From Leucoraja ocellata (lineage: Eukaryota), in the NCBI GenBank assembly GCA_036785375.1, contig JAWMAR010000478.1, positions 682,001 through 746,000 on the forward strand: a DNA stretch of 64,000 nucleotides, written 5' to 3'. Shown piece by piece: positions 1,465 through 60,074 of the stretch (the stretch's first letter is position 1; each line of letters starts with the position of its first letter). Under the pieces are notes generated by a model. The model made no database searches and was not told where the DNA came from. It worked only from the letters and a program-made list of their open reading frames with translations. The translations under genes and the position numbers were made by a program.

Positions 1465-1500
1465 CGTAGCTGCCAGTGATGTAGGATAAACTTGACCCTC
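1465..1500 (-). CDS. Microexon, 36 nt, [12 protein letters not shown] (most diverged copy)
   Basis: cccacag|exon|gtaaat; length and splice sites kept although the middle has diverged. Confidence 0.6.
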
Positions 1501-59500: not shown

Positions 59501-60074
59501 ACAGACAAGCGTGAATAATATTGCATGACAAGAATTCAGAAATTGACATTTTAACTCAGTCGTATACAGTTTATTTCATAGCTAAGGAATCTTGGAGTCT
59601 ACCAGTAGCTGTGGGGAAAGAAAGATTTTGATGACAATTGATCGGATCGTACACAAACCTTCACAACCTAAAAATACACCACAAAGTCAGGGAAGGCGGG
59701 ATCTAACCTTACAGCAATTTGGTTTGGGTGTATTGTGTTCAGTTATGTTCAGCCTAACCTAAACTCAACTCAACTGACCTAAGCTCAACTCATCACAACA
59801 ACATCAGCCGTGTTGATCCCTGGGATTCCTGCTTCATTCACTGCCTTTTCCCTCCTTGTAAAGCCAACCGTGAGGGAATTCTGCTCCTCTCACTGACGGG
59901 GTCACCACCCGCAGGTTGTCGACATGGAACATTAACCCTGGTCCTTTAGCATTCTGCGGTATTCTAACATTCACTGTCACCTGTCCATCATTGCTTTGTG
60001 GATTAAGTGAAGAATATATTAAACTATAATATAATTACCGTAGCCTCCTTTCTTATCGTATCCACTTGACCCTC
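1465..60074 (-). CDS. Internal part of a putative multi-microexon gene for a Gly/Ser/Tyr-rich tandem-repeat protein (39 microexons of 33/36 nt, 38 with intact splice sites)
   Basis: Each unit has minus-strand branch point (yTnAC), ...tttctcccacAG, a 33- or 36-nt exon and GTAAAT. The only length change is 3 nt; no phase-1 stops; many differences are synonymous in that frame. No start or stop exon seen. Confidence 0.75.
2632..3333 (-). mobile_element. 5'-truncated CR1 LINE (different subfamily, accatata tail)
   Basis: ORFs 2713-3099 and 3100-3348 carry [46 protein letters not shown]; in-frame stop between them. Confidence 0.92.
4058..4093 (-). CDS. Microexon, 36 nt, [12 protein letters not shown]
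   Basis: cctacag|exon|gtacat (weaker donor). Confidence 0.55.
4330..4450 (+). mobile_element. Ancient CR1 ORF2 relic that was amplified as part of the unit (example copy)
   Basis: gtattgtgttcagttatgttcacc...agaaggatgtg...gagtgcagaagacgttgaccagaattattccc matches the [22 protein letters not shown] segment of the young CR1 copies here; also near 95, 1725, 8530, 9870, 13185, 25790, 31300, 36980, 43620, 48135, 60310. Confidence 0.75.
5521..6138 (+). mobile_element. 5'-truncated CR1 LINE inserted in the old CR1 relic of a unit
   Basis: ORFs 5555-5746 and 5743-6048; tttctatgtttcta tail; relic gtgcagaag|acgttgaccag is split by it. Confidence 0.92.
8258..8293 (-). CDS. Microexon, 36 nt, [12 protein letters not shown]
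   Basis: cccacag|exon|gtaaat. Confidence 0.65.
9603..9635 (-). CDS. Microexon, 33 nt, [11 protein letters not shown]
   Basis: cccacag|exon|gtaaat. Confidence 0.7.
11428..12240 (-). mobile_element. 5'-truncated CR1 LINE
   Basis: ORF 11527-12183 is the CR1 ORF2 C-terminus; (catagaaa)n tail; taacatca at both flanks. Confidence 0.93.
12911..12946 (-). CDS. Microexon, 36 nt, [12 protein letters not shown]
   Basis: cccacag|exon|gtaaat. Confidence 0.65.
14278..14310 (-). CDS. Microexon, 33 nt, [11 protein letters not shown]
   Basis: cccacag|exon|gtaaat. Confidence 0.7.
15658..15690 (-). CDS. Microexon, 33 nt, [11 protein letters not shown]
   Basis: cccacag|exon|gtaaat. Confidence 0.65.
16533..16683. 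repeat. Perfect 11-mer tandem repeat (AACCCAACACA), ~13-14 copies
   Basis: Read directly. Confidence 0.95.
17519..17625. repeat. 20-mer tandem repeat (cattatcatcaKctcaacgt), ~5 copies
   Basis: Read directly. Confidence 0.85.
17643..18115 (+). mobile_element. GC-rich non-autonomous retroelement/SINE-like fragment; its 3' part recurs in many units
   Basis: GC-rich body, T-rich 3' region, aataaa and ctttgaac tail; shorter copies near 14819, 20045, 22950, 24650, 30380, 33970, 36050, 39670, 42690, 47215, 51675, 52620, 53825. Confidence 0.55.
18815..18847 (-). CDS. Microexon, 33 nt, [11 protein letters not shown]
   Basis: cccacag|exon|gtaaat. Confidence 0.7.
19741..19773 (-). CDS. Microexon, 33 nt, [11 protein letters not shown]
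   Basis: cccacag|exon|gtaaat; synonymous GGA>GGT and TAC>TAT. Confidence 0.7.
20184..20950 (-). mobile_element. 5'-truncated CR1 LINE fused directly to a Penelope fragment
   Basis: CR1 C-terminal motifs in ORF 20377-21075; (catagaaa) tail near 20184-20204. Confidence 0.92.
20950..21495 (+). mobile_element. Penelope-like element fragment (RT-linker and GIY-YIG C-terminus), internally deleted and apparently T>C hypermutated
   Basis: Translates to [12 protein letters not shown]...[10 protein letters not shown]...RKDRSLRNS...AEHL...AQH.N...RKLEEQH....LG...PGG.N. Confidence 0.8.
22664..22696 (-). CDS. Microexon, 33 nt, [11 protein letters not shown]
   Basis: cccacag|exon|gtaaat. Confidence 0.7.
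23402..23434 (-). CDS. Microexon, 33 nt, [11 protein letters not shown]
   Basis: cccacag|exon|gtaaat. Confidence 0.7.
24356..24388 (-). CDS. Microexon, 33 nt, [11 protein letters not shown]
   Basis: cccacag|exon|gtaaat. Confidence 0.7.
25523..25558 (-). CDS. Microexon, 36 nt, [12 protein letters not shown]
   Basis: ccaacag|exon|gtaaat; synonymous GGG>GGA. Confidence 0.7.
27224..27256 (-). CDS. Microexon, 33 nt, [11 protein letters not shown]
   Basis: cccacag|exon|gtaaat. Confidence 0.7.
27607..28430 (-). mobile_element. 5'-truncated CR1 LINE
   Basis: ORFs 27700-28053 and 28061-28432; (catagaaa)n tail. Confidence 0.93.
29178..29210 (-). CDS. Microexon, 33 nt, [11 protein letters not shown]
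   Basis: accacag|exon|gtaaat. Confidence 0.7.
30092..30124 (-). CDS. Microexon, 33 nt, [11 protein letters not shown]
   Basis: cccacag|exon|gtaaat. Confidence 0.7.
31032..31067 (-). CDS. Microexon, 36 nt, [12 protein letters not shown]
   Basis: ccaacag|exon|gtaaat; synonymous GGG>GGT. Confidence 0.7.
32747..32779 (-). CDS. Microexon, 33 nt, [11 protein letters not shown]
   Basis: cccacag|exon|gtaaat; synonymous GGC>GGA. Confidence 0.7.
33684..33716 (-). CDS. Microexon, 33 nt, [11 protein letters not shown]
   Basis: cccacag|exon|gtaaat; synonymous GGT and TAT codons. Confidence 0.7.
34287..35143 (-). mobile_element. GC-rich non-autonomous retroelement (~860 bp) with (ttcaaga)n tail, copy 1
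   Basis: ttcaagattcaagattcaatttaattgtc at the left end; interrupts satellite; no recognisable protein. Confidence 0.65.
35764..35796 (-). CDS. Microexon, 33 nt, [11 protein letters not shown]
   Basis: cccacag|exon|gtaaat. Confidence 0.7.
36710..36745 (-). CDS. Microexon, 36 nt, [12 protein letters not shown]
   Basis: ccaacag|exon|gtaaat. Confidence 0.7.
38447..38479 (-). CDS. Microexon, 33 nt, [11 protein letters not shown]
   Basis: cccacag|exon|gtaaat. Confidence 0.7.
39384..39416 (-). CDS. Microexon, 33 nt, [11 protein letters not shown]
   Basis: tccacag|exon|gtaaat; synonymous GGT and TAT codons. Confidence 0.7.
39986..40840 (-). mobile_element. Same element, copy 2 (duplicated with the 5.7 kb block)
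   Basis: Same flanks as copy 1, offset about 5,699 nt. Confidence 0.65.
41461..41493 (-). CDS. Microexon, 33 nt, [11 protein letters not shown]
   Basis: cccacag|exon|gtaaat. Confidence 0.7.
42391..42423 (-). pseudogene. Pseudo-microexon, 33 nt, acceptor AG mutated to GG
   Basis: + strand ctcccgtggg instead of ctcctgtggg, giving cccacGG on minus. Confidence 0.6.
43350..43385 (-). CDS. Microexon, 36 nt, [12 protein letters not shown]
   Basis: ccaacag|exon|gtaaat. Confidence 0.7.
45074..45106 (-). CDS. Microexon, 33 nt, [11 protein letters not shown]
   Basis: cccacag|exon|gtaaat. Confidence 0.7.
45991..46023 (-). CDS. Microexon, 33 nt, [11 protein letters not shown]
   Basis: cccacag|exon|gtaaat. 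Confidence 0.7.
46927..46959 (-). CDS. Microexon, 33 nt, [11 protein letters not shown]
   Basis: cccacag|exon|gtaaat. Confidence 0.7.
47868..47903 (-). CDS. Microexon, 36 nt, [12 protein letters not shown]
   Basis: ccaacag|exon|gtaaat. Confidence 0.7.
49547..49579 (-). CDS. Microexon, 33 nt, [11 protein letters not shown]
   Basis: cccacag|exon|gtaaat. Confidence 0.7.
50464..50496 (-). CDS. Microexon, 33 nt, [11 protein letters not shown]
   Basis: cccacag|exon|gtaaat. Confidence 0.7.
51386..51418 (-). CDS. Microexon, 33 nt, [11 protein letters not shown]
   Basis: cccacag|exon|gtaaat. Confidence 0.7.
52333..52365 (-). CDS. Microexon, 33 nt, [11 protein letters not shown]
   Basis: cccacag|exon|gtaaat. 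Confidence 0.7.
53551..53586 (-). CDS. Microexon, 36 nt, [12 protein letters not shown]
   Basis: ccaacag|exon|gtaaat; usual branch point deleted upstream. Confidence 0.6.
54543..56577 (+). mobile_element. Rex1/Babar-type non-LTR retrotransposon, 5'-truncated, disrupted RT ORF
   Basis: [21 protein letters not shown](H)GCVLSP, KFADD, C-terminal [15 protein letters not shown]; stop at 55204-55206; aataaa then (ATT)n tail. Confidence 0.88.
56711..57030. repeat. 20-mer minisatellite aacagcattaRcgtcacctc x16 (10 G-type then 6 A-type)
   Basis: Counted directly. Confidence 0.95.
57640..57675 (-). CDS. Microexon, 36 nt, (R/G)[11 protein letters not shown]
   Basis: cccacag|exon|gtaaat. Confidence 0.65.
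58973..59008 (-). CDS. Microexon, 36 nt, [12 protein letters not shown]
   Basis: cccacag|exon|gtaaat; last base is A, so the next split codon is Arg. Confidence 0.6.
59454..59489 (-). CDS. Microexon, 36 nt, [12 protein letters not shown]
   Basis: cccacag|exon|gtaaat. Confidence 0.65.
60039..60074 (-). CDS. Microexon, 36 nt, [12 protein letters not shown]
   Basis: cccacag|exon|gtaatt. Confidence 0.7.

Follow-up and report, generated by a model that had tools for sequence, protein, structure and literature searches.

Predicted tandem microexon array within a secreted Gly/Tyr-rich gene family of the skate Leucoraja ocellata

The analysed window is a stretch of 64,000 nt from contig JAWMAR010000478.1 of the Leucoraja ocellata assembly GCA_036785375.1 (G000:C478:682001-746000), and parts of the locus that lie outside it are given in C478 contig coordinates. 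The window contains 39 microexon units, which lie exclusively on the minus strand, with exons of 33 nt in 25 units and of 36 nt in 14 (Table 1). A donor GT is present in every unit (GTAAAT in 37, GTAATT and GTACAT in one each), the acceptor AG is intact in all but the unit at 42423, and most units have a branch-point-like CTCAC whose A lies at −23. The 38 intact exons sum to 1,296 nt. These counts agree with an earlier sequence-only reading of the window, and so do two losses of 1 nt in the flanks (near 27121 and 45905), both of which are present in the unit alignment. Skipping of the broken-acceptor unit preserves the frame, and one such unit is also found in the mirrored copy described below.

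Table 1. Features of gene A inside the window (window positions) and beyond it (C478 positions)
Feature	Position	Strand	Remarks
TATA-like box	C478:775071		upstream of array
Signal-peptide exon, ATG	C478:775012		upstream; ends in phase 1
30-nt exons	C478:768352, 767009, 765302, 761822		upstream
132-nt Gly/His/Tyr exon	C478:751939		upstream
Dead unit	C478:750249		upstream
36-nt exon	C478:747166		upstream
Microexon array	1465..60074	-	39 units: branch point, pyrimidine tract, AG, 33/36-nt phase-1 exon, GT
Diverged 36-nt exons, array 5' end	53551..60074	-	five exons: 60039-60074, 59454-59489, 58973-59008, 57640-57675, 53551-53586
Homogenised core	18815..52365	-	mainly 33-nt exons of one 11-residue type; ~0.9-kb units
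36-nt variant exons of the core	47903, 43385, 36745, 31067, 25558	-	one per 4-6 exons
Sole broken-acceptor unit	42391..42423	-	GG instead of AG
3' exons, divergence rising	1465..15690	-	seven exons: 15658-15690, 14278-14310, 12911-12946, 9603-9635, 8258-8293, 4058-4093, 1465-1500
Degenerate (AACTC/AACTG)n intronic pentamer satellite	278..64000	.	with LINE/SINE insertions
Stop exon	C478:681417		downstream
3'-UTR exon	C478:678593		downstream; AATAAA at 678457 and 678441

The array introns range from 445 to 4,164 nt (median ~1,160) and are composed of conserved unit DNA, the degenerate pentamer satellite and LINE/SINE pieces (e.g. at ~54600-56300 and ~62000-63750), and it is this satellite with its insertions that hides the exons. 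The 36-nt variants in the core create a higher-order repeat of 4.5–6.6 kb. Each exon is preceded, ~110 nt upstream, by an AG-GT motif that could in principle mark a 6-nt exon or a recursive splice site, but it was rejected as a decaying decoy. One intron also contains an NDE1 retrocopy, which is 98% identical to a cluster containing Amblyraja and Leucoraja NDE1 and so places the host among the rajid skates.

The array is continued on both sides by linked start, stop and 3'-UTR exons, which had been proposed as a check on the sequence-only reading. Six further coding exons lie between the signal exon and the window. The resulting model, termed gene A, spans ~97 kb and comprises 47 exons encoding ~547 residues, with 45 of the 46 coding exons no longer than 52 nt. 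The composition is dominated by Gly (38%), Ser (17%) and Tyr (16%), with 3% Lys, 1.5% Pro and only 0.2% each of Ala, Val and Leu. The stop codon lies 34 nt ahead of the last junction, so the predicted mRNA should escape nonsense-mediated decay under the usual 50-nt rule. A hydropathy scan identified a hydrophobic 17-residue leader exon. Keratin-associated (KRTAP) and FET proteins also have Gly/Tyr/Ser-rich repeats and are intracellular; because gene A has a predicted signal peptide, the FET-like and the skin or high-Gly/Tyr keratin-associated candidates put forward earlier are excluded. The hidden gene with one repeat per exon, read in phase 1, is supported by the linked exons. The sequence-only reading also missed that the array is a single expanded exon of a multigene family. 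As predicted from these models, the window very probably represents the middle of a genuine minus-strand protein-coding gene in a tandem family of secreted Gly/Tyr-rich proteins.

A promoter search returned 37 matches, 34 of them near full length, a count that is inflated by haplotype duplicates. The family members have a common plan consisting of a promoter and signal exon, one or more 27–30-nt exons, one or more long Gly/Tyr exons, the 33/36-nt microexon(s), a 42-nt stop exon and a UTR exon. The microexon is present in one or two copies in short members, in 13 in a neighbouring paralogue, in 39 in the windowed part of gene A and in 49 in a mirrored copy. Two short paralogues of 161 and 208 residues follow the same plan and carry the same microexon, in one or two copies, at the same position. 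Paralogue B carries a 573-nt exon, and this long exon resembles the head of gene A in composition (Gly/His/Tyr). The signal-peptide exons with their phase-1 donor and the TATA-like box are conserved between paralogues, and the signal exon contributes 52 coding nt in genes A–D and in all but one of another seven signal exons that were read, the exception being frameshifted. The stop is the second full codon of the 42-nt exon in all nine genes with a stop exon that were examined (TAA in eight, TGA in one), and the sequence diverges past it; the 3'-UTR exon with AATAAA is conserved as well. GY-stop or DY-stop forms the end of the family models. The mirrored copy is probably the other allele of gene A. 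All ten substitutions checked in aligned sequencing runs, and one 5-nt deletion, match this copy, and both forms occur in both samples, a pattern that would suit an allele and a paralogue alike. Inspection by eye of ~370 kb revealed no conventional neighbour gene. None of the domain matches to tyrosinase (11), S100 (5) or SPARC (12, which bear on SCPP linkage) lay on the family contigs, in an assembly that is fragmented and with SPARC scoring limited to the best candidates.

The sequence-only reading had relied on a phase-1 frame free of stops, and the 38 joined exons indeed have none in phase 1; that frame is not unique, since phase 0 is equally open and phase 2 alone contains stops (40). The window by itself therefore leaves the frame unfixed, and it is the flanking exons, with a stop codon at the same place in nine of nine family genes, that fix phase 1. 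A phase-0 reading would give an acidic, Thr-rich, SCPP- or mucin-like peptide. SCPP genes combine small cassette exons, a signal peptide and a separate UTR exon with phase-0 introns, whereas the 52 coding nt of the signal exon place the introns of this family in phase 1, and the conserved terminal stop is found in phase 1 only; we consider the phase-0 peptide hardly credible. The repeats might also be a non-coding satellite whose splice-like motifs arose by chance or are decayed relics, a view suggested by their tandem, homogenised arrangement within satellite. This is very improbable, however, because complete start, stop and UTR exons line up with the units in a single frame, and the short paralogues carry this exon at the corresponding position.

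Silent changes, which had been advanced as coding evidence, were overrated. Of 40 distinct variants, 11 are synonymous against 22% expected, which is not significant, third positions account for 27 of 64 parsimony events, and synonymous-excess tests on the array exons did not separate the frames. The argument is weak because exon diversity (0.119) equals that of the flanks (0.118–0.126). The 64 substitution events produced no stop (P ~0.006–0.017), and the six donor columns show two events against 7.5 expected (P 0.02), P values that are modest and come from non-independent, gene-converting copies. None of 234 overlapping 36-column flank windows is open and in frame in all copies, and the decoy acceptor has lost its AG in 11 of 37 units, the real acceptor in 1 of 37. 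Selection appears to have acted on the splice sites and on keeping the frame open, with no such sign for amino-acid identity. With exon diversity at least that of the flanks and no significant synonymous excess, these data leave room for a recent, neutral amplification of the array, with many of its exons skipped: the family would be real, but gene A would be a pseudogene or its array mostly skipped, the unit having spread as a selfish satellite with few copies in the mRNA. The dead units at 750249 and 42423 fit such a course, as do broken family copies, such as a frameshifted signal exon near C478:484k and some UTR exons that have no upstream family exon within the 10–20 kb examined. We nevertheless judge it unlikely, since gene A and the mirrored copy both retain an intact promoter and undamaged signal, stop and UTR exons, the acceptors are intact in 38/39 and 48/49 units without stops, and conservation of the splice columns contrasts with decay of the decoy acceptor.

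Among five sequencing runs listed for the 573-nt exon of paralogue B, none was an RNA run carrying it: three that carry it are of unknown kind, and two presumed to be RNA were additions with a share of 0.00. Four runs were aligned to a stretch of 8 kb that includes the stop exon, the UTR exon and two exons of the window; among the 15 joints listed, with 863 more beyond the listing, none was an exon–exon joint, and the two presumed-RNA runs covered essentially only repeats, so that this result counts neither for nor against splicing. Protein searches used single low-complexity exons as queries, which weakens their blanks, as annotated skate or shark orthologues may be missed. These gave no match at E≤0.001 and six weak, unrelated matches at E≤10; a single-exon query had no match among 1.84 billion protein representatives, three of three exons hit no Pfam family, and the Atlas search gave no usable match. 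In the skate's own genome, 91 rows were returned, of which the strong matches are two exon copies and the other 89 are weak and of low complexity. Among the papers listed by full-text literature searches, none describes the family in its title or abstract start, and an earlier description is possible.

The predicted precursor would begin with a 17-residue signal peptide, followed by a short head rich in His, Gly and Tyr and then by ~40 repeats of the 11-residue type, one per exon, and would end in GY-stop. The microexon, its splice signals and its satellite-filled intron appear to have been amplified in tandem as one unit, probably through unequal crossing-over. All exons are phase-1 cassettes, so that adding, deleting or skipping units leaves the frame intact. 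A disordered structural protein of the extracellular space is the most likely product. It may be stored in and secreted by a gland, condensing through Tyr "stickers" on Gly/Ser spacers with the His-rich head possibly acting as a pH switch, and might then be cross-linked through Tyr oxidation.

The architecture is close to that of tropoelastin (ELN), a secreted Gly-rich, low-complexity matrix protein with one domain per exon, whose exon borders are all phase 1:1 as stated in an excerpt of bioRxiv 10.1101/2024.12.03.626628. Tandem exon replication is likewise described, in an excerpt of PMC12733013, for devil ray eln, with 70 exons and multiple 36- and 48-nt copies. The gene A family models have a signal peptide and all-phase-1 cassette exons. 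In contrast to tropoelastin, gene A lacks alternating hydrophobic and KA/KP cross-link exons, contains almost no Ala, Val, Leu or Pro and has no basic, Cys-containing C-terminus; its repeats are polar (Tyr/Ser/Asn) and it belongs to a multigene tandem family rather than being a single gene. Schistosome micro-exon genes (MEGs), with a signal peptide, long introns and many short exons mostly in multiples of three (PMC10526429, in part), also build a secreted protein mostly from short in-frame exons. The likeness is architectural and implies no homology: MEG exons are mostly ~15 nt and varied, whereas those of this vertebrate family are near-identical 33/36-nt tandem duplicates. The gene A head and the long exon of gene B resemble in composition the Gly/Tyr/His-rich proteins of sclerotised materials such as the squid His-rich beak proteins, whose Gly/His/Tyr repeats undergo coacervation via Tyr and His before cross-linking (PMC9999432); sequence homology was not found, and the parallel, for a product whose chemistry is itself predicted, would be one of convergence.

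Given a rajid skate host and a Gly/Ser/Tyr-rich composition, which together fit such a role, the leading candidate site for the gene A product is the oviducal-gland egg capsule, an assignment to which we would give an even chance. According to Koob and Cox, skate capsule precursor proteins are reportedly secreted, Gly/Ser/Tyr-rich, also Pro-rich, and tanned by catechol oxidase; the gene models agree in their high Gly, Ser and Tyr and have only 0.5–1.5% Pro. We know of no skate egg-capsule precursor sequences for comparison. Capsule tanning, together with the title of the oxidase paper, is cited in PMC4806620, and counting against the capsule role is the statement in PMC10230700 that the main component of the capsule is collagen. 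The gene may well be spliced as modelled and serve another extracellular material, a substantial possibility though short of even, which is shared jointly among skin or mucus, fin-ray (ceratotrichia) or cartilage matrix, embryonic structures and male-duct or sperm-bundle secretions, and the tissue cannot be named from composition alone. Nevertheless, a high-copy tandem cluster with one common compact TATA promoter would suit bulk, synchronous secretion such as capsule formation. Insect chorion gene clusters offer an analogy.

More tentatively, gene A may belong to a still unsequenced Gly/Tyr-rich, non-collagen capsule family whose protein length is tuned by an "exon satellite", that is, a ~1-kb intron-plus-exon unit with higher-order repeats that would grow and shrink like satellite DNA. 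If true, this would yield the 39- and 49-unit alleles and the paralogues with 1, 2 or 13 units, each step adding one Tyr-bearing repeat of 11–12 residues. The precedents in tropoelastin and the schistosome MEGs limit the surprise of the architecture. The series of 1, 2, 13, 39 and 49 copies that a single cassette exon reaches within this cluster catches tandem exon duplication in progress. If expressed, these genes would constitute a vertebrate family likely to be overlooked under repeat masking and annotation by homology, and exact sequences and junctions are now available to test them as genes for the tanned component, other than collagen, of a tough natural material, the skate egg case.

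The window was scanned with a fuzzy pattern built from the acceptor and exon start of one unit, and 39 minus-strand units were recovered between 1465 and 60074. Each repeat of about 1 kb consists of an acceptor, a microexon, a donor and a satellite-filled intron. The microexons are 33 nt (25 copies) or 36 nt (14 copies) long, and the 36-nt variant returns every 4–6 exons in a higher-order repeat. All 39 donors carry GT (GTAAAT in 37) and 38 acceptors carry AG, the exception being GG at 42423; together, the 38 intact exons make up 1,296 nt. The unit and exon counts of the sequence-only reading were exact. 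The array introns span 445–4,164 nt and contain conserved unit DNA, a degenerate pentamer satellite and LINE/SINE pieces. Inside this satellite, two tandem repeats are recent expansions: an 11-nt one that is perfect (13.7 copies, window 16533–16683) and a 20-nt one that is near-perfect (window ~56720–57040). Some 110 nt upstream from every exon lies a second, decayed acceptor-like AG-GT motif, probably a relic of partial duplication; it was not seen in those units of the neighboring gene B that were aligned.

The flanks of the window on contig JAWMAR010000478.1 (C478) in the 3.44 Gb assembly were profile-searched for more units and related exons, with a hydropathy scan for the leader. The 5' and 3' exons to be expected of such a gene were located on both sides. 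The resulting model, gene A, has 46 coding exons and one UTR exon, and encodes 547 residues with a predicted mature product of ~52 kDa (Gly 38%, Ser 17%, Tyr 16%, Asn 9%). The stop codon lies 34 nt from the last junction, a distance within what nonsense-mediated decay usually tolerates. The spliced 38 intact exons contain no stops in phase 1, none in phase 0 and 40 in phase 2, so that the phase-1 frame proposed earlier could not be established from the window alone; it is settled by the signal, stop and UTR exons outside. Gene A is very probably a real gene.

Features of gene A on C478 beyond the window array
Feature	Position	Strand	Remark
TATA-like box	59 nt above the ATG exon at C478:775012	minus	gene A promoter
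Signal exon (ATG, 17-residue hydrophobic leader, phase-1 donor)	C478:775012	minus	found by hydropathy scan
Four 30-nt exons	downstream of signal exon	minus	
132-nt Gly/His/Tyr exon	after the four 30-nt exons	minus	
Dead unit, acceptor CAC	C478:750249	minus	between 132-nt and 36-nt exons
36-nt exon	C478:747166	minus	directly precedes window array
42-nt stop exon, ends GY-stop	C478:681417	minus	downstream of array
UTR exon, ~150 nt, two AATAAA	C478:678593	minus	downstream of stop exon

Just past the right end of the window, an intron of gene A contains a frameshifted NDE1 processed pseudogene (C478:746131–746643, plus strand). It is 98% identical over 92 residues to a cluster with Amblyraja radiata and Leucoraja erinacea NDE1, and identity falls to 91% for Rhinoraja, 90% for Narcine and 82–87% for sharks and sawfish. 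These values identify the host as a rajid skate.

Splicing and frame seem to be maintained by selection in the array, while residue changes are tolerated. None of 64 parsimony events in the exon creates a stop (6–8% of changes expected; P ~0.006–0.017), and the six donor columns show 2 events versus 7.5 expected (P 0.02), although these P values are rough since the array copies are not independent. The AG is lost at a decoy acceptor in 11 of 37 units, versus 1 of 37 at the real one, with two units of truncated upstream DNA left out, and not one of 234 overlapping flank windows keeps an open, unshifted frame across every copy. The contrast between frameshift-free exons and indel-bearing flanks was borne out: the only exon indel is of 3 nt, and 25 of 26 distinct flank gap runs are not multiples of three. 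The exon differs from the rest of its unit in indels but not in nucleotide diversity (0.119 vs 0.118–0.126). The earlier argument from silent changes is weak, with 11 of 40 variants synonymous versus 22% expected, and 27 of the 64 events at third positions.

Gene A belongs to a family. Its promoter and signal exon have 37 genome matches on nine contigs, 34 of them near full length, and at least 40 matches were found to the UTR exon (all 40 candidates scored). Family genes on C478 are arranged head to tail. For gene B (C478:668638–614830), the model has 374 residues and includes a 573-nt Gly/His/Tyr exon together with an array of 13 acidic microexons whose sequence has diverged; this is the second expansion of the exon amplified in gene A. 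Genes C (208 residues, 2 microexons) and D (161 residues, 1 microexon) are 48–53% Gly and 21–24% Tyr. As far as fetched, eight of nine further stretches share the common gene plan; in the C428 stretch, the signal exon, exon 2 and UTR exon were found and the middle exons were not detected. In all nine family genes whose 42-nt exon was fetched, the stop occupies its second full codon. Stop placement and common plan therefore indicate that the array derives from a single ancestral microexon of a family of secreted Gly/Tyr-rich genes, and that this microexon was amplified in two members.

Other family-related sequences were also observed. The signal exon at C478:~483900 has an 11-nt duplication and 63 coding nt with a shifted frame, and is a pseudogene or an assembly error. 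Near-identical UTR-exon copies occur on C1622, C1568, C3810, C3280 and C3492, with family coding exons not detected within 10–20 kb upstream. On C846, C1258, C1109, C5407 and C1179, weak matches to the Gly/Tyr/His exon lie in very long open frames, the largest of 9,771 codons; these frames are probably stop-free tandem repeats, and possibly giant repetitive exons.

An inverted near-copy of the gene A region (C478:835059–1114707, 280 kb), flanked by two 200-N gaps, repeats ~555–821 kb of the contig at 98.6% mean identity. The 49 units of its array (AG in 48) contain no stops, and both the start exon and the stop exon are intact. The copy could be a true palindrome, or the unit number an assembly error. 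Tyrosinase-family and SPARC-domain genes also appear twice in the assembly, and one contig holds such a pair in inverted orientation; the copy is thus most likely the second haplotype, and the assembly probably carries uncollapsed haplotypes. Both forms are present in public contigs from two samples. With the second-haplotype reading, 39 versus 49 units would be an allelic difference and the family count would be roughly halved.

The closest architecture to gene A is tropoelastin. Tropoelastin exon borders are all phase 1:1 (bioRxiv 10.1101/2024.12.03.626628), and the devil ray gene has 70 exons with replicated 36/48-nt exons (PMC12733013); phase-1 borders and replicated small exons are common to both. 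However, gene A lacks the hydrophobic/cross-link alternation and the tropoelastin C-terminus, and therefore is not an elastin gene, though elastin-like in build. A secreted micro-exon plan is also seen in schistosome MEGs (PMC10526429). Full-text literature and single-exon protein searches returned no description of the family, low-complexity queries being weak and key egg-case papers outside coverage. It is apparently an undescribed, real variant of a known gene architecture.

Skates lay encapsulated eggs, and we consider an egg-case role for the family about an even prospect. Non-collagen capsule proteins were reportedly described by Koob and Cox as rich in Gly, Ser, Pro and Tyr, which the low-Pro family fits imperfectly. 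The shared TATA promoter would drive transcription and the phase-1 cassettes, evident in the gene anatomy, would be spliced together into a secreted, disordered product with one Tyr per 5–6 residues. Squid His-rich beak proteins coacervate via Tyr and His, with curing afterwards (PMC9999432); by analogy, the skate protein may condense upon secretion and then be cross-linked through Tyr oxidation. Tanning is known from skate egg cases, and PMC4806620 cites a catechol oxidase of the capsule. Collagen is the main capsule component (PMC10230700), and the family would therefore belong to the non-collagen fraction. Term searches of PMC8471067, PMC8513177 and PMC8894161 found nothing on capsule composition, and PMC11734691 gave a reference line only. 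A separate tyrosinase-domain match lies in one 480-codon open frame (C134:3116281–3116784, minus strand), unlike the multi-exon tyrosinase-family matches; it may represent a tyrosinase-like gene without introns and a candidate for the catechol oxidase of the capsule. If the gene A family is indeed an egg-capsule family with an exon array of variable copy number, its significance would be higher.
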